Below are positions 33-5,132 of a DNA stretch of 5,132 bases, one piece after another. Position 1 is the stretch's first letter. Each line of letters starts with the position of its first letter. The DNA lies in the IMG/VR virus record IMGVR_UViG_2671180435_000009; one strand, written 5' to 3'. The position numbers and the translations under genes are program-made. This DNA comes from a virus. Taxonomy: Duplodnaviria > Heunggongvirae > Uroviricota > Caudoviricetes. Below the pieces are notes generated by a model. The model had not been told where the DNA came from. It was given only the letters and a program-made list of their open reading frames with translations, and did no database searches.

Positions 33-1159
33 AGTACCGCCTCCTGAAAATCACCCTGATAGAAAGCCGGTACACGCTGCATAACTTCANNNNNNNNNNN
101 NNNNNNNNNNNNNNNNNNNNNNNNNNNNNNNNNNNNNNNNNNNNNNNNNNNNNNNNNNNNNNNNNNNNNNNNNNNNNNNNNNNNNNNNNNNNNNNNNNNN
201 NNNNNNNNNNNNNNNNNNNNNNNNNNNNNNNNNNNNNNNNNNNNNNNNNNNNNNNNNNNNNNNNNNNNNNNNNNNNNNNNNNNNNNNNNNNNNNNNNNNN
301 NNNNNNNNNNNNNNNNNNNNNNNNNNNNNNNNNNNNNNNNNNNNNNNNNNNNNNNNNNNNNNNNNNNNNNNNNNNNNNNNNNNNNNNNNNNNNNNNNNNN
401 NNNNNNNNNNNNNNNNNNNNNNNNNNNNNNNNNNNNNNNNNNNNNNNNNNNNNNNNNNNNNNNNNNNNNNNNNNNNNNNNNNNNNNNNNNNNNNNNNNNN
501 NNNNNNNNNNNNNNNNNNNNNNNNNNNNNNNNNNNNNNNNNNNNNNNNNNNNNNNNNNNNNNNNNNNNNNNNNNNNNNNNNNNNNNNNNNNNNNNNNNNN
601 NNNNNNNNNNNNNNNNNNNNNNNNNNNNNNNNNNNNNNNNNNNNNNNNNNNNNNNNNNNNNNNNNNNNNNNNNNNNNNNNNNNNNNNNNNCCTGTACCGG
701 TAACGCAACACCTGCTGGCTGAGGAAAGACTTTACCATCCGTTTCCGCTATGGATGCGGCTTTCGGCTCTGCCGGTAAATCAGCGCCCGGNNNNNACCGA
801 AATTTACCGCCCTGATTCACGCGAATCAGACGCCCTTTGCTGATTGCCATGGCCAGCGATGAATTCGCCCGGCGGGAGGTAATCCCGAACATCAGTGCCA
901 GCTCATCCGCCGTTTGTGGGCCATGTTGTTCAATCGCCTCAGTCAGCATTTGCGCTGTCACTTTCGGTACCGGTGACACTGGTTCACTTTCACCAGCCTG
1001 AATCAGCCACCACATCGAACCCTTGTTATCCGCTTCACCACGGCGCTTCAGTTTCCACAGTTCGTTGACCGCATCTTCACGGCTGATTCCAAGGCGGGAC
1101 GCCACCACATGTGAAGAGGCTCTTTTCAGTGCTTTCAGTGCGTCAAATACAGTTTCCAT
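29..1159 (-). CDS. hypothetical protein with two N-terminal winged-helix-like repeats; over half the gene is masked
   Basis: ATG at 1159-1157 is preceded by GGAGG (1172-1168) with 8 nt spacing, 21 nt after the dnaC-like stop. The ORF track starts at TTG 1177, which I consider less likely. The frame is open from 1159 to the mask at 690 and the same coordinate frame ends at TGA 31-29. The visible N-terminus (METVFDALKALKRASSHVVASRLGISREDAVNELWKLKRRGE... and ...MLTEAIEQHGPQTADELALMFGITSRRANSSLAMAISKGRLIRVN) looks like two HTH/winged-helix units followed by a Pro/Ala-rich linker. Continuity across 90-690 and 791-795 cannot be verified. Confidence 0.5.
   Translation of the reverse strand: METVFDALKALKRASSHVVASRLGISREDAVNELWKLKRRGEADNKGSMWWLIQAGESEPVSPVPKVTAQMLTEAIEQHGPQTADELALMFGITSRRANSSLAMAISKGRLIRVNQGGKFRXXPGADLPAEPKAASIAETDGKVFPQPAGVALPVQXXXXXXXXXXXXXXXXXXXXXXXXXXXXXXXXXXXXXXXXXXXXXXXXXXXXXXXXXXXXXXXXXXXXXXXXXXXXXXXXXXXXXXXXXXXXXXXXXXXXXXXXXXXXXXXXXXXXXXXXXXXXXXXXXXXXXXXXXXXXXXXXXXXXXXXXXXXXXXXXXXXXXXXXXXXXXXXXXXXXXXXXXXXXXXXXXXXXXXXXXEVMQRVPAFYQGDFQEAVL
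90..690. other. masked or undetermined bases (601 N)
   Basis: Run of N in the supplied sequence; lies inside the 29..1159 ORF. Confidence 1.
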
Positions 1160-1180: not shown

Positions 1181-1927
1181 TTACTTCACAACTCCCGGAA
1201 AGCTGACATTTGAACGCCAGCTATCCCAGTTAAACGTCACCCACCGACAACCGTTCATGGTCATGCGGTCCATAATCCTCTCACCAAGAAGCGTGCTCAT
1301 TGCGGCATGATTCAGGTTTGTTAACATCCCGACACTGCACAGTGATGCTGTCCGGCGATCAATTATCTGGTGCAATACCACCTGCTCGTTTTTCGTCTCC
1401 CGCTGAATGCCTATTTCATCCAGGACCAGCAAATCAACCCCGCAAAGCTCCTGTAAAAATTTTTCACCGGATTTGCCGTTGTCGTAGCTGTCATGCAACA
1501 CGCTCATGACATCAGACTCGGTGACGATAATCACGCTGCGCCCCTTCGCCATCAGCCGGTTACCCATCGCCGCTGCAAGGTGATTTTTCCCGGTGCCGGT
1601 TTTACCGCTGAACACAAAATTCGTGCACCCGGTCATCAGTTCGTCAGCTATGGATTTGGCCTGGCTCAGCGCGTATTTTTGCCCGTCGTTCTGCACCTGA
1701 TAATTCGCAAACGAGCATTTGCTGTGCAGAGGCTGGATGCCCGAACGATTCAGGATTTTTTCCACCCGCAACTGGCGATTCTGGCGGTTAATCTCCTCGC
1801 TGCGTTTTCGTCCTTCAGCAAGTTGCCATTCCCGCCACTCCTCCACCGTCCGGTACGGTGGAACCGCCCCCTGTGGTGCAAGTCTGTGAATACGTTCAAG
1901 AACCCCGGCTGCCGCAATGTTTTTCAT
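1181..1927 (-). CDS. dnaC: DnaC-family AAA+ helicase loader (prophage-type DnaC paralog)
   Basis: Complete 248-aa ORF with ATG at 1927 and TAA at 1183-1181, with a G-rich SD (GGGGGTG) upstream. Walker A FSGKTGTGKNHLAAA and Walker B VDLLVLDEIG are present. Blocks NRSGIQPLHSKCSFANYQV, GMLTNLN, LLGERIMDRM and FNWDSWRS match E. coli DnaC as I remember it (NRSGIRPLHQNCSFENYRV, GMLTNSN, LLGERVMDRM, FNWDSYRS), and the N-terminus MKNI... matches MKNV.... This is from memory, not a database search. Confidence 0.93.
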   Translation of the reverse strand: MKNIAAAGVLERIHRLAPQGAVPPYRTVEEWREWQLAEGRKRSEEINRQNRQLRVEKILNRSGIQPLHSKCSFANYQVQNDGQKYALSQAKSIADELMTGCTNFVFSGKTGTGKNHLAAAMGNRLMAKGRSVIIVTESDVMSVLHDSYDNGKSGEKFLQELCGVDLLVLDEIGIQRETKNEQVVLHQIIDRRTASLCSVGMLTNLNHAAMSTLLGERIMDRMTMNGCRWVTFNWDSWRSNVSFPGVVK

Positions 1928-1933
1928 GCCACA

Positions 1934-3057
1934 TCACCCCCTGAATCCCGGCGGAATTTCGGTATCCGGTTCAGAAATATGATTCACACAACGCTGGTTG
2001 TTCGTGCCGCTTACCGGGAGCAACCAGGGGTTTTCAAAATTCCGGTCCGGCCCAAAAAACGNNNNNNNNNNNNNNNNNNNNNNNNNNNNNNNNNNNNNNN
2101 NNNNNNNNNNNNNNNNNNNNNNNNNNNNNNNNNNNNNNNNNNNNNNNNNNNNNNNNNNNNNNNNNNNNNNNNNNNNNNNNNNNNNNNNNNNNNNNNNNNN
2201 NNNNNNNNNNNNNNNNNNNNNNNNNNNNNNNNNNNNNNNNNNNNNNNNNNNNNNNNNNNNNNNNNNNNNNNNNNNNNNNNNNNNNNNNNNNNNNNNNNNN
2301 NNNNNNNNNNNNNNNNNNNNNNNNNNNNNNNNNNNNNNNNNNNNNNNNNNNNNNNNNNNNNNNNNNNNNNNNNNNNNNNNNNNNNNNNNNNNNNNNNNNN
2401 AGGCTGCTGCAGTTGGAGTGATTGCTCCGGCCTTGCGGTCATCACCTGCTGCACAGCGCCCGAATCGGCTTTCAGCGCATACGCTGAATCGGCTTCCGGT
2501 GTCGAGCCTGCTGGCTGACCAGGATTGACGGTCTGAACATCCCCTGCCTGGTTCGTGGCGTTTTTTACGCCATGGACCATAGTGTTTTGATCTTCTTTAT
2601 CTGTATCTTTATCTGTATCTGTCGTGACTCGTCGTGACATGTGCGTGACATTTCGTGACGCGCCGTGACAATCGCCATTTTGTTCCCGCTTTCTTTCCCT
2701 CTCTCGCTGCGCCCTCTTGCGCTCTGCAGGAGATTTTGCGGTTTGCGAAATATTGCCGTTGTCCTCTTTAAGCACCTGGCGTTTTTCCCATCCAGTGATT
2801 AAATCACCATCAAGTACCCGCCCCTGCATCGTCTGCAAAATTGAATCAATTACCTCTTCTGTCACGTCGAGCGCACTTGCCAAATCTTCTGTCGTGACAT
2901 CAATGTGACCTCGCGTGACATTTCGTGACGCGCTCACCAGGAGGTGGATATACACTGCCATCACTGTTGCAATTGGCTGCCCTGACACCCTGGCAATTGT
3001 TCGCCACTTAGGGTCATTTGGCATGTCATGCCATAATCTGAGCCAGGCGTTAGCCAT
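1934..3057 (-). CDS. phage replisome organizer (O-like N-terminal domain) with DnaT-like C-terminal tail; reading frame changes inside the masked block 2062-2400
   Basis: ATG at 3057-3055 follows an SD (AAGAGGTG, 3068-3061). The ORF track starts at GTG 3063. The N-terminus MANAWLRLWHDMPNDPKWRTIARVSGQ... fits the pattern I associate with phage replisome-organizer N-terminal domains. Downstream of the mask, a different frame reads ...NQRCVNHISEPDTEIPPGFRG and stops at TGA 1936-1934, 6 nt before the dnaC-like ATG. This closely matches the E. coli DnaT C-terminus as I recall it (...RDVNTVSEPDSQIPPGFRG). The ORF-track end at 2011 (tail RFLGRTGILKTPGCSR) is in the N-terminal frame and is probably spurious. 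One gene or two cannot be resolved because of the mask. Confidence 0.7.
2062..2400. other. masked or undetermined bases (339 N)
   Basis: Run of N; hides the junction between the organizer N-terminal frame and the DnaT-like tail frame. Confidence 1.
2596..2619. repeat. 2 x 12-bp perfect tandem repeat TTTATCTGTATC in an AT-rich tract
   Basis: Read directly: 2596-2607 and 2608-2619 are identical. On the coding strand they encode DTDK DTDK. The tract lies immediately beside the iteron array. Confidence 0.8.
2621..2670. repeat. iteron array: 5 direct CGTGAC copies at 10-11 bp spacing; putative phage origin inside the organizer gene
   Basis: CGTGAC at 2623-2628, 2633-2638, 2644-2649, 2654-2659 and 2664-2669, all in the same orientation at roughly one helical turn, flanked by the AT-rich tract 2581-2620. 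The layout resembles lambda ori, which lies within gene O. Confidence 0.6.
2861..2933. repeat. second iteron cluster: 1 inverted copy (GTCACG 2861-2866) plus 4 direct copies
   Basis: CGTGAC or GTGAC at 2893-2898, 2905-2909, 2914-2919 and 2924-2929, with 10-11 bp spacing. A 21-bp exact copy of part of the first array (GCGTGACATTTCGTGACGCGC) occurs at 2643-2663 and 2913-2933. Confidence 0.5.
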
Positions 3058-3128
3058 ACTCACCTCTTCTGATACCGAATCTTTTTACTCACGAGTTGCC
3101 GGGAGCGATTCGATATGGCTATTGTCAG

Positions 3129-3408
3129 TCAATGTACTGCCACAGCATTTCCTGCCGGGCCACCACGGTTCATCTGATTGAAACCGGCGATTGCCACTGC
3201 GACAAAATCATCAGCGTCTCTCACCAGTCGTTCATGCGTCTCCACCAGTTCCCGAAAATAAGCTGAACTGTGGCTGCGCATTCGAGCCACCAGCGGAGGT
3301 GGCATTGCCCTTTCGATCGCAGGTAACAACGCCTGAATTTTTTCAACAGCGTCAGGGGTGTCTTTATCCAGCCAACGGAAAATCTTTTGGGTGTTGAGAT
3401 AAAGCGTG
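3129..3408 (-). CDS. 3' portion of an unidentified gene immediately upstream of the organizer gene (position of a CII/YdaT-like regulator); 5' end masked
   Basis: The minus frame is open from the mask edge at 3408 to TGA 3131-3129, giving 92 visible codons (...TLYLNTQKIFRWLDKDTPDAVEKIQALLPAIERAMPPPLVARMRSHSSAYFRELVETHERLVRDADDFVAVAIAGFNQMNRGGPAGNAVAVH). The ORF-track TTG start at 3329 is an artefact, since the frame is open upstream of it. No family recognised. Confidence 0.45.
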
Positions 3409-4586
3409 NNNNNNNNNNNNNNNNNNNNNNNNNNNNNNNNNNNNNNNNNNNNNNNNNNNNNNNNNNNNNNNNNNNNNNNNNNNNNNNNNNNNNNNNNNNN
3501 NNNNNNNNNNNNNNNNNNNNNNNNNNNNNNNNNNNNNNNNNNNNNNNNNNNNNNNNNNNNNNNNNNNNNNNNNNNNNNNNNNNNNNNNNNNNNNNNNNNN
3601 NNNNNNNNNNNNNNNNNNNNNNNNNNNNNNNNNNNNNNNNNNNNNNNNNNNNNNNNNNNNNNNNNNNNNNNNNNNNNNNNNNNNNNNNNNNNNNNNNNNN
3701 NNNNNNNNNNNNNNNNNNNNNNNNNNNNNNNNNNNNNNNNNNNNNNNNNNNNNNNNNNNNNNNNNNNNNNNNNNNNNNNNNNNNNNNNNNNNNNNNNNNN
3801 NNNNNNNNNNNNNNNNNNNNNNNNNNNNNNNNNNNNNNNNNNNNNNNNNNNNNNNNNNNNNNNNNNNNNNNNNNNNNNNNNNNNNNNNNNNNNNNNNNNN
3901 NNNNNNNNNNNNNNNNNNNNNNNNNNNNNNNNNNNNNNNNNNNNNNNNNNNNNNNNNNNNNNNNNNNNNNNNNNNNNNNNNNNNNNNNNNNNNNNNNNNN
4001 NNNNNNNNNNNNNNNNNNNNNNNNNNNNNNNNNNNNNNNNNNNNNNNNNNNNNNNNNNNNNNNNNNNNNNNNNNNNNNNNNNNNNNNNNNNNNNNNNNNN
4101 NNNNNNNNNNNNNNNNNNNNNNNNNNNNNNNNNNNNNNNNNNNNNNNNNNNNNNNNNNNNNNNNNNNNNNNNNNNNNNNNNNNNNNNNNNNNNNNNNNNN
4201 NNNNNNNNNNNNNNNNNNNNNNNNNNNNNNNNNNNNNNNNNNNNNNNNNNNNNNNNNNNNNNNNNNNNNNNNNNNNNNNNNNNNNNNNNNNNNNNNNNNN
4301 NNNNNNNNNNNNNNNNNNNNNNNNNNNNNNNNNNNNNNNNNNNNNNNNNNNNNNNNNNNNNNNNNNNNNNNNNNNNNNNNNNNNNNNNNNNNNNNNNNNN
4401 NNNNNNNNNNNNNNNNNNNNNNNNNNNNNNNNNNNNNNNNNNNNNNNNNNNNNNNNNNNNNNNNNNNNNNNNNNNNNNNNNNNNNNNNNNNNNNNNNNNN
4501 NNNNNNNNNNNNNNNNNNNNNNNNNNNNNNNNNNNNNNNNNNNNNNNNNNNNNNNNNNNNNNNNNNNNNNNNNNNNNNNNNNNNNN
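3409..4586. other. masked or undetermined bases (1178 N)
   Basis: Run of N; the largest hidden block, bordered by genes entering it from both sides. Confidence 1.
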
Positions 4587-4611
4587 GCCTAAATCAGAGG
4601 AGATATGTAAA

Positions 4612-5010
4612 ATGAGTACAGTCCTTTCCCCAATGGTTTCAGAATTTGAGACAGTTGAGCAAGAAAATAGTTACAANNNNNNNNNNNNNNNNNNNNNNNN
4701 NNNNNNNNNNNNNNNNNNNNNNNNNNNNNNNNNNNNNNNNNNNNNNNNNNNNNNNNNNNNNNNNNNNNNNNNNNNNNNNNNNNNNNNNNNNNNNNNNNNN
4801 NNNNNNNNNNNNNNNNNNNNNNNNNNNNNNNNNNNNNNNNNNNNNNNNNNNNNNNNNNNNNNNNNNNNNNNNNNNNNNNNNNNNNNNNNNNNNNNNNNNN
4901 NNNNNNNNNNNNNNNNNNNNNNNNNNNNNNNNNNNNNNNNNNNNNNNNNNNNNNNNNNNNNTACCTGTATCCTCCAAGCGAGCGAGTTCTTGGTCTTCGT
5001 GAAATTGTAA
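4612..5010 (+). CDS. hypothetical small protein (about 132 aa if continuous), middle masked, lower-GC region
   Basis: ATG at 4612 follows GAGGAG (4597-4602) with 9 nt spacing. The ATG overlaps a TGA (4613-4615) that would terminate an upstream plus-strand frame coming out of the mask. Visible N-terminus is MSTVLSPMVSEFETVEQENSY. The same coordinate frame is open beyond the mask and ends at TAA 5008-5010 (...TCILQASEFLVFVKL). Continuity is unverifiable. Confidence 0.3.
   Translation: MSTVLSPMVSEFETVEQENSYXXXXXXXXXXXXXXXXXXXXXXXXXXXXXXXXXXXXXXXXXXXXXXXXXXXXXXXXXXXXXXXXXXXXXXXXXXXXXXXXXXXXXXXXXXXXXXXXTCILQASEFLVFVKL
4677..4961. other. masked or undetermined bases (285 N)
   Basis: Run of N inside the putative 4612..5010 ORF. 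Confidence 1.
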
Positions 5011-5132
5011 CTCATCCTAACTACATCATCCTTTACCGAGTAACAGCATCAAGCATAGAAGTAGTAAATATTGTGCATTCTCGAAGACAGTATCCAGGCA
5101 AAAACAGTTAATTATTCCCGCCGACAGAACCA

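Follow-up and report, generated by a model that had tools for sequence, protein, structure and literature searches.

A gene for a phage replisome organizer (a replication initiator) in the 5,132-nucleotide viral DNA of IMG/VR record IMGVR_UViG_2671180435_000009 (Caudoviricetes; this whole stretch is the window below) holds two separate arrays of a six-base site within its own coding sequence, one in the part for the N-terminal domain (N-domain) and the other in the part for the linker beyond it. Judging from their sequence and from analogy with known origins, we consider it probable that both arrays make up a two-part replication origin inside the organizer gene, with the linker array in its core and the N-domain array (N array) as an auxiliary part. 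The runs of N in the window (90-690, 2062-2400, 3409-4586 and 4677-4961) are masks that do not keep true length; the one in the organizer gene (2062-2400) has 339 N in place of 280 real bases, and because masks distort length the organizer open reading frame (ORF) and the other ORFs that cross a mask seem frame-shifted in the window. The whole finding lies in the unmasked stretch 2401-3408. Each of the six unmasked segments matches Shigella sonnei chromosomes at 100% (e.g. CP000038.1, strain Ss046), and the unmasked reference copy is locus L009, where a window position w from 2401 to 3408 corresponds to 3579 + (3408 - w). Residues are numbered from the ATG at 3057.

The hexamer CGTGAC (GTCACG on the coding strand) occurs nine times in the window against 1.5 expected, always within 2623-2929: at 2623, 2633, 2644, 2654 and 2664 in the linker array, at 2893, 2914 and 2924 in the N array, to which TGTGAC at 2904 adds a site, and inverted at 2861. 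Read on the coding strand, the N-array sites are GTCACG at 2929-2924, GTCACG at 2919-2914, GTCACA at 2909-2904 and GTCACG at 2898-2893, and those of the linker array are at 2669-2664, 2659-2654, 2649-2644, 2638-2633 and 2628-2623 (Table 1). The 6-bp core GTCACG is asymmetric and recurs once per helical turn, with every array site co-oriented; the inverted copy comes 32 bp after the final site of the N array. A gap of 229 bp separates the arrays, that of the N-domain upstream and both inside the ORF, and the linker array is placed between the N-domain and the C-terminal half. The first-pass annotation had reported an exact 21-bp repeat 270 bp apart in one gene, giving the peptide ASRNVT twice, with each copy inside an iteron cluster, one cluster in the N-terminal domain coding region and the other in the linker. 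All of this was borne out by exact search, by shuffling and by the array positions, the clusters being made of short direct repeats with a period of ~10 bp in a single initiator gene: the 21-mer GCGTGACATTTCGTGACGCGC stands at 2643-2663 and 2913-2933 (+ strand), an offset of 270 bp or 90 codons, with no third copy in the window when up to 3 mismatches were allowed, and two matches appeared in 0 of 200 dinucleotide-preserving shuffles, none being expected by chance. The 11-mer TCTGTCGTGAC, found at 2618 and 2888, forms another exact repeat that is likewise offset by 270 bp, and the two repeats hence reflect a colinear similarity of ~46 bp. Chance or low complexity as the origin of the repeat was ruled out by the shuffles and the hexamer enrichment.

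What the repeats conserve is the DNA. In 20 distinct genes from different genera whose arrays are of the GTCAC class, with the same genes elsewhere as background, the codons inside hexamers were GTC in 40 of 40 cases for Val (background 20%), ACG in 40 of 40 for Thr (27%), GGT in 20 of 20 for Gly (17%), TCA in 19 of 20 for Ser (14%) and CAC in 20 of 20 for His; for Arg in the spacers each of the four CGN codons was in use, and two of the residues encoded by the spacers were free to vary. At the inverted copy the Val codon of DVT/DVS is GTG in every GTCAC-class gene having this peptide, while in the GTAAC class one gene (L034) has GTTAC and another (L031) keeps GTGAC, and in the GAACG class the peptide is absent. 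Moreover, matches of 15-21 bp between N array and linker array are out of frame in L013, L015, L040, L044, L045 and L059. The frozen synonymous positions and the out-of-frame matches therefore place the constraint on the DNA, and the repeated ASRNVT peptide, although present as the first-pass annotation said, is a by-product of the two window copies sharing a frame. A need for ASRNVT-type peptides twice, or a structural N-domain loop, with DNA identity following from protein plus codon bias, is extremely unlikely: the loop A-S-x-N-V-T-R-G-H-x-D-V-T does show good conservation at the peptide level and the shared frame would suit such a need, but synonymous positions in the hexamers are fixed on codons that depart from the usage of the genes concerned, the spacers drift, sites change in both arrays together, and saturated spacer positions argue against a codon artefact of recent ancestry. 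A peptide-level repeat was accordingly rejected on the out-of-frame matches and frozen synonymous sites. The upstream cluster might, by the first-pass annotation's own reservation, have proved to be ordinary conserved coding sequence with a coincidental match; in homologues it is instead periodic (10/10/11 bp) and constrained at synonymous positions. These data, with those on the AT tract described below, show that this tract, like the two arrays and the inverted copy, is a DNA element under nucleotide-level purifying selection. Such sites in coding DNA would dictate the peptide, giving ASRNVT twice, the N-domain loop SRNVTRGHxDVT and the (DK/DT)n of the AT tract.

We analysed the DNA of 55 loci taken from species-representative genomes, with counts made on 52 homologous genes. 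About 45 genes carry one pentamer 3-6 times near residues 43-55 and 3-6 times near residues 118-151, ~10 bp apart and hardly elsewhere. Both arrays, each with at least two copies of one pentamer, were present at the same two positions in 42 of the 52, and the linker array in 44; the linker array stood by itself in 2 genes and the N array in none, and 7 genes had neither. When the classes of the two arrays were called independently they agreed throughout (N/linker: 24 GTCAC/GTCAC, 5 GTAAC/GTAAC, 13 GAACG/GAACG; mismatched, 0), the extended cores GTCACG, GTAACG and CGAACGC being alike in both, and the protein alignment revealed distant relatives with other peptide repeats, again common to the N-domain loop and the linker (e.g. 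GNAGVTQSNA). The longest substring that an N array has in common with a linker was 12.3 for the gene's own linker and 7.6 for the linkers of other genes (p<=5e-5; within classes, p about 0.001). Of 58 close relatives in IMG/VR, all distinct, 54 kept both 21-mers and 55 had an identical N array, and the arrays were nearly invariant, with single-nucleotide polymorphisms too few to rank arrays against flanks. These comparisons show that the two arrays co-vary and that the layout is old and widespread. The duplication of the binding-site array suggested by the first-pass annotation thus stands in part: it is neither recent nor specific to this lineage, since both arrays occur in most homologues, span three proteobacterial classes and change in step, and a recent duplication was ruled out by this family-wide conservation. 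Nor can the upstream block be called less usual, two arrays being the rule among homologues and recurring in an organizer with an unrelated N-domain.

The N array might instead be a non-functional by-product, arisen by recent or repeated duplication of linker iterons into the N-domain loop and kept similar by gene conversion, with no selection acting on the N array. Arrays are indeed more similar within a genome than between genomes, even inside an iteron class, and they gain and lose sites in 21-bp steps of seven codons and two sites (e.g. 6 sites in L013), a change by two sites that leaves the frame unbroken because 10+11 = 21 bp = 7 codons; one such two-site gain is the inserted TCHGVSR of certain E. 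coli and E. albertii genes. We nonetheless regard this origin as highly improbable, as position, orientation and spacing are shared by three proteobacterial classes and recur beside an unrelated N-domain, and as the inverted copy co-varies too; conversion of 40-bp tracts could aid homogenisation but leaves the long persistence unexplained. Some homologues depart from the common plan in ways of their own. Two that have neither array (L053, from a Serratia metagenome-assembled genome, and L063, from Pantoea sp.) contain, after the N-domain, a segment resembling a GIY-YIG/T5orf172-type nuclease motif (YVYYV...GISxNPWAR) at residues ~105-180, which in L063 bears its own ACTACG/GTAGTA repeats. In P0018 (E. 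coli, 302 aa), a natural deletion has taken out the greater part of the linker array, together with the AT tract and the next ~30 residues (CHGAS|PEADSAY), and this is probably a prophage copy with an inactivated origin.

The class of site has changed repeatedly. Two GTAAC genes (L031 and L034) are 84% identical to a GTCAC gene (L036) in the N-domain outside the arrays, and the closest neighbours of the remaining GTAAC genes are of the GTCAC or GAACG class, which indicates several independent site changes that each involved both arrays; by this comparison the switches are repeated and recent. The organizer is a mosaic in which the same N-domain is joined to various C-terminal halves, of which some include a DnaT DNA-binding domain. 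The reverse combination is found in organizer P0033 (locus L067; E. coli contig JARHMY010000002.1), with a C-terminal half near-identical from just past the AT tract and an unrelated N-domain (MRDYAKVSPRFW...). In its gene AAGGGGCTT forms two sets of three, one in the N-domain coding region and one in the linker, at a distance of 256 bp (1680-1721 and 1936-1988 in L067; the N-domain repeats 11 bp apart); after the linker set comes a purine-rich (GAACAG/GAGCAG)n tract. It is therefore the N-domain that the site type goes with, rather than the C-terminal half or the adjacent YdaT-like gene, and with the mosaic junction just downstream of the AT tract, N-domain, both arrays and AT tract move as one module. 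The two-array plan thus reappears where both fold and site are different. It is accordingly extremely improbable that a YdaT/cII-like, DnaC-like or host protein occupies the sites in the organizer's stead: enteric loci do have the YdaT-like gene as a constant neighbour, but it stays when the site type changes with the organizer N-domain (L067 versus L009), the downstream neighbour varies (DnaC-like or DUF977) with the site unchanged, and a host factor would leave three site classes and a fourth unrelated site unexplained.

In the Rac prophage of K-12, ydaU (L003 3261-3563 and 3631-3651; DUF1376) has GATGTTCAA-like repeats at about residues 48 and 77 and four more at 118-144, along with two ATCCCCCCC motifs 12 bp apart, and may represent a third organizer family with in-gene repeats at two places. 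Identity of the organizer studied here with Rac ydaU/oriJ was ruled out, K-12 YdaU being a different, DUF1376-type organizer.

It is conceivable, if rather doubtful, that the peptide encoded by the N array (residues 43-56, before a putative helix-turn-helix) is itself part of the site-reading surface, which would make the gene a self-referential specificity module whose reader and both arrays are rewritten together. The peptide does differ with the site, being SRNVTRGH for GTCACG, NATERGRTQ for GAACGC and GNAGVTQ for GTAACG. In an AlphaFold2 model of residues 1-135, used solely to place residues 43-56 as a helix end and loop, residues 43-49 end a long helix, 50-55 form a loop and two short helices follow; the modelled loop fits the length variation found at that point, at the moderate confidence of the model.

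The linker array is followed by an AT- and purine-rich tract, a candidate DNA-unwinding element (DUE), where the GC content of the organizer gene reaches its minimum (0.35) and TRF reports a repeat of period 12 (2594-2620). The linker cluster thereby has the classical context of an origin, in agreement with the linker-located origin of the first-pass annotation. In homologues the linker array is always followed by cAGATAAAGATAAAGA-type DNA, whatever the iteron class and in GC-rich hosts too, and the 14 codons after it are strongly biased, with ratios of 140:3 for Asp GAT (188:282 elsewhere; p 2e-41) and 106:25 for Lys AAA (187:220 elsewhere; p 7e-13). Among the 58 close relatives, length polymorphism was confined to this tract. 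Beyond it comes a palindrome (Table 1), an element that in ori-lambda is likewise placed after the AT tract. The peptide MVHGVKNAT is conserved in many linkers that are otherwise variable; other homologues (e.g. L018, L025, L027 and L052) have at the palindrome's place C5-6 N3-5 C5-6 and then G4-6, which may be a second type of post-DUE element.

Table 1. Elements of the organizer gene and genes beside it, in window coordinates.
Feature	Position	Strand	Remarks
N-domain iteron array	2888..2933	-	encodes residues 43-56 (ASRNVTRGHIDVTT); 4 same-sense sites, spacing 10/10/11 bp
21-mer copy 1, N-domain	2913..2933	-	encodes A43-S-R-N-V-T48; holds N-array hexamers 1 and 2
Inverted single site	2861..2866	+	GTCACG on +, CGTGAC on coding strand; part of L-D-V-T, residues 63-66
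Linker iteron array	2618..2669	-	encodes residues 130-146 (CHGASRNVTHMSRRVTT); 5 same-sense GTCACG, spacing 10/10/11/10 bp
21-mer copy 2, linker	2643..2663	-	encodes A133-S-R-N-V-T138; holds linker-array hexamers 2 and 3
AT-/purine-rich tract (GATACAGATAAA)n, (GATAMA)n type	2585..2622	-	directly downstream of linker array; encodes DTDKDTDKED
Palindrome, 13-bp arms TGGTTCGTGGCGT / ACGCCATGGACCA, 5-nt loop	2549..2579		just past AT tract; encodes MVHGVKNAT
Organizer (initiator) gene	1934..3057	-	ATG at 3057, stop 1934-1936; intact 354-aa ORF at L009 3930-4994
DnaC-like helicase-loader gene	1181..1927	-	6-bp gap downstream of organizer gene
YdaT-family (cII-position) gene, 3' part	3129..3408	-	upstream of organizer; remainder masked

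For a two-part origin, the linker array with its five sites, the (GATAMA)n tract and the palindrome would form the core, where organizer N-domains would occupy the sites along one face of the helix, a protomer to each turn; melting would take place in the AT tract, and the organizer's C-terminal part with its DnaT-like tail would, together with the neighbouring DnaC-like protein, bring the host helicase. The N array, with four sites and the inverted copy, would provide auxiliary sites that raise the local occupancy of the organizer and would bridge to the linker array via a DNA loop of ~230 bp. We infer the origin core, the binding by the organizer and the helicase recruitment from the order of the elements and from lambda and SPP1, and the gene context (cI/cro/YdaT-like, organizer, DnaC-like) is in favour. 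Two things rank the linker array as the core: it lies directly against the AT tract, and homologues that keep a single array keep this one.

For the N array we favour the auxiliary origin role, followed by an autoregulatory operator or roadblock and, third, a fork barrier. As an operator, the N array would be coated by the organizer so as to hinder RNA polymerase, and would thus limit expression of the organizer and DnaC-like protein or gate origin-activating transcription. The array lies early in the transcribed gene and upstream of the origin core, is followed by a single inverted copy that co-varies with the iteron class, and is dispensable in some homologues, as a regulatory add-on might be; inverted iteron copies are used for Rep autorepression in iteron plasmids. 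We still judge it unlikely that this is the main role of the N array, as no promoter-like site was found on the coding strand inside or between the arrays; the one consensus match, on the non-coding strand in the linker array, is no more than expected, and an internal promoter between the arrays was ruled out on this basis. Operator and auxiliary origin array look alike at the sequence level and are not mutually exclusive. Rfam matches, indicative of structured RNA, were likewise absent from the window. The remaining role, in which organizer bound to the N array stops the leftward fork and so sets unidirectional replication or a switch to rolling circle, in the manner put forward for gp38 at SPP1 oriR, is very unlikely: all sites of both arrays are co-oriented, and SPP1 has two gp38-binding repeat regions of which the second is proposed to stall forks (PMC6316719), but the second array here is 229 bp off and not kilobases, with no distant array in a complete phage genome. 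In that genome, of the 46-kb phage Tritos, clusters of at least three sites were the two arrays alone, and a third, SPP1 oriR-like array was not found.

The proposed origin resembles several known systems, each in part. In lambda and Shiga toxin (Stx) phages it is gene O that holds the iterons, and additional iterons lengthen the O protein by further residues (PMC7466680). As in ori-lambda, the origin would be in the initiator's own gene, in the stretch for an interdomain linker, with iterons, AT-rich tract and palindrome in this order, iterons that dictate the linker peptide and a helicase-delivery gene next. The lambda iterons, however, are 19 bp long with internal dyad symmetry, bind O dimers and are about two turns apart, whereas the organizer sites are 6-bp, asymmetric and 10-11 bp apart; lambda, moreover, has a single array, which lies outside the N-domain coding region, against two arrays in the organizer gene. 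SPP1 gp38 binds direct repeats together with a DUE rich in AT inside gene 38, plus a second, distant repeat set (PMC5737612, PMC6316719). The organizer gene shares with it repeats and an adjacent AT-rich DUE in the initiator's own gene, a second repeat set elsewhere and the element order of oriL, and the organizer N-domain resembles Phage_rep_org_N, weakly but over its whole length. In SPP1, though, a different gene ~13 kb off houses the second set, which comes with a separate AT-rich region, whereas the second set of the organizer gene is 229 bp away, in the part of the same gene that codes for the DNA-binding domain, and lacks an AT tract of its own.

Iteron plasmids (P1 incC/incA, F incB/incC, RK2 oriV) also have two separated arrays of Rep sites, one for unwinding and the other auxiliary or regulatory, with inverted copies for autoregulation and looping or handcuffing between arrays. 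The organizer gene is similar in its two separated arrays of one site class, matched in 42 of 42 two-array genes; it differs in that both arrays are in the ORF, whereas the plasmid arrays flank the rep gene or are non-coding and have iterons of 17-22 bp, and the copy-number control of plasmids has no obvious role at a lytic-cycle phage origin. The origins of staphylococcal pathogenicity islands (SaPI) and other phage-inducible chromosomal islands (PICI) have short hexamer- or octamer-type iterons in two sets. In SaPI the two sets stand on either side of the AT-rich region, are located downstream of the rep gene and are bound by a helicase-type Rep, unlike the organizer gene, with its AT tract outside the array pair and both arrays coding.

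Several points weigh against a two-part origin read by the organizer. The N array is missing in 10 of the 52 homologues, 2 of these having the linker array, and hence is not universally required. The distance between arrays varies in 9-bp steps (249, 258 or 267-270 bp from last site to last site), so that the strict helical phasing expected of a rigid loop is not conserved; helical phasing between arrays was dropped for this reason. Site class follows the N-domain with one exception, L048 (a Noviherbaspirillum metagenome-assembled genome, 2501-3307), in which the linker array is of the GTCAC class and the N array is missing although the N-domain has its nearest relatives (84%) among GAACG-class genes, and which may be a recombinant, an assembly chimera or a mis-assembly. 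That the organizer itself binds the sites is drawn from analogy and from the N-domain swap. The N-domain matches Pfam PF09681 (Phage_rep_org_N) below threshold only (E 0.12; 12.8 bits against a cut-off of 23.3; model positions 1-118 of 121), and its AlphaFold model is mediocre (pLDDT 68.7) and without a significant fold match, Foldseek against the PDB having yielded no match at E<1 and only weak winged-helix or helix-turn-helix-like ones. Finally, a two-array layout inside a gene was not found described in the literature searched, which mostly did not cover the older phage literature, and papers on the 'Eru' replication regions of Stx phages make no mention of iterons or of this organizer's origin.

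The organizer, named 'phage replisome organizer' at NCBI, is a full-length match to PHROG phrog_3729 'replication initiation protein' (E 3e-250), and a Pfam scan assigned it to no significant family. Its N-terminal part weakly matches PHROG 'replisome organizer' families (E 2e-5 and 4e-4) as well as 'DnaD-like' families, TIGR01714 gives E 0.016, and the best homologue reaches E 0.0047 and 17.4 bits with PF09681. No Pfam Phage_rep_O match was obtained, Phage_rep_org_N being the one weak hit of the N-domain, and the organizer is therefore not a homologue of lambda O; by its sequence it appears to be at best a remote relative of gp38, and outside the lambda O family. The last 24 residues (...CVNHISEPDTEIPPGFRG; window 1934-2005, - strand; L009 4920-4994) resemble the C-terminus of DnaT (NCBIfam NF002770, E 0.0015), and the organizer gene with a DnaC paralogue 6 bp on mirrors the chromosomal dnaT-dnaC operon. 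This stretch of the organizer gene was matched in 2,950 of 5,426 complete E. coli genomes, of which 1,661 have almost the whole of it. The N-domain occurs in just 25 deposited phage genomes and in none of the classical model phages, and relatives of the organizer are spread across Gamma-, Beta- and Alphaproteobacteria.

The L009 region is a lambdoid-type early-right operon in a prophage remnant of Shigella sonnei, with genes in the order cI-like repressor, PaaA2/ParE toxin-antitoxin pair, cro-like, YdaT-family, 354-aa organizer, DnaC-like ATPase, DUF1627 and DUF977. The DnaC-like gene matches Pfam IstB_IS21 (E 3e-19) and NCBIfam PRK12377 (E 2e-150), and falls below the threshold of the DnaC equivalog model (296 bits against a cut-off of 357; E 2e-88). 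In the immunity region, the PaaA2-type antitoxin and ParE toxin genes lie beside the cI-like repressor gene (window 4611-4676 and 4962-5110, + strand; L009 2057-2541). Phage Tritos (L001/L068 32105-33638) and the vB_Eco series have the DUF977 gene directly after the organizer gene, without a helicase loader, and the S. sonnei version (L009 3930-6932) has the DnaC-like and DUF1627 genes inserted between the two. From these loader-less phages, it follows that the organizer may be able to work with host DnaC.

If the two-part origin reading is true, it would provide an origin map, with binding sites, unwinding tract and palindrome, for a very common prophage replication module, specified by an organizer family that is frequent in genomes and has neither a Pfam family nor a studied member. 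It would also be a case of overlapping codes, in which the binding sites fix synonymous codons, and even amino acids, of the very domain that binds them. The site classes GTCACG, GTAACG and GAACGC, together with AAGGGGCTT, would then be natural specificity switches in which the protein and both arrays have changed together, useful for following how initiators and origins diverge and how prophages avoid cross-talk. Were the gene, in addition, a self-referential module, phage origins could diversify quickly, and the recurrence of the two-array plan with an unrelated N-domain and AAGGGGCTT would point to a general design rule for organizer genes. Since the sites can be destroyed by synonymous recoding that leaves the protein untouched, the reading is directly testable.

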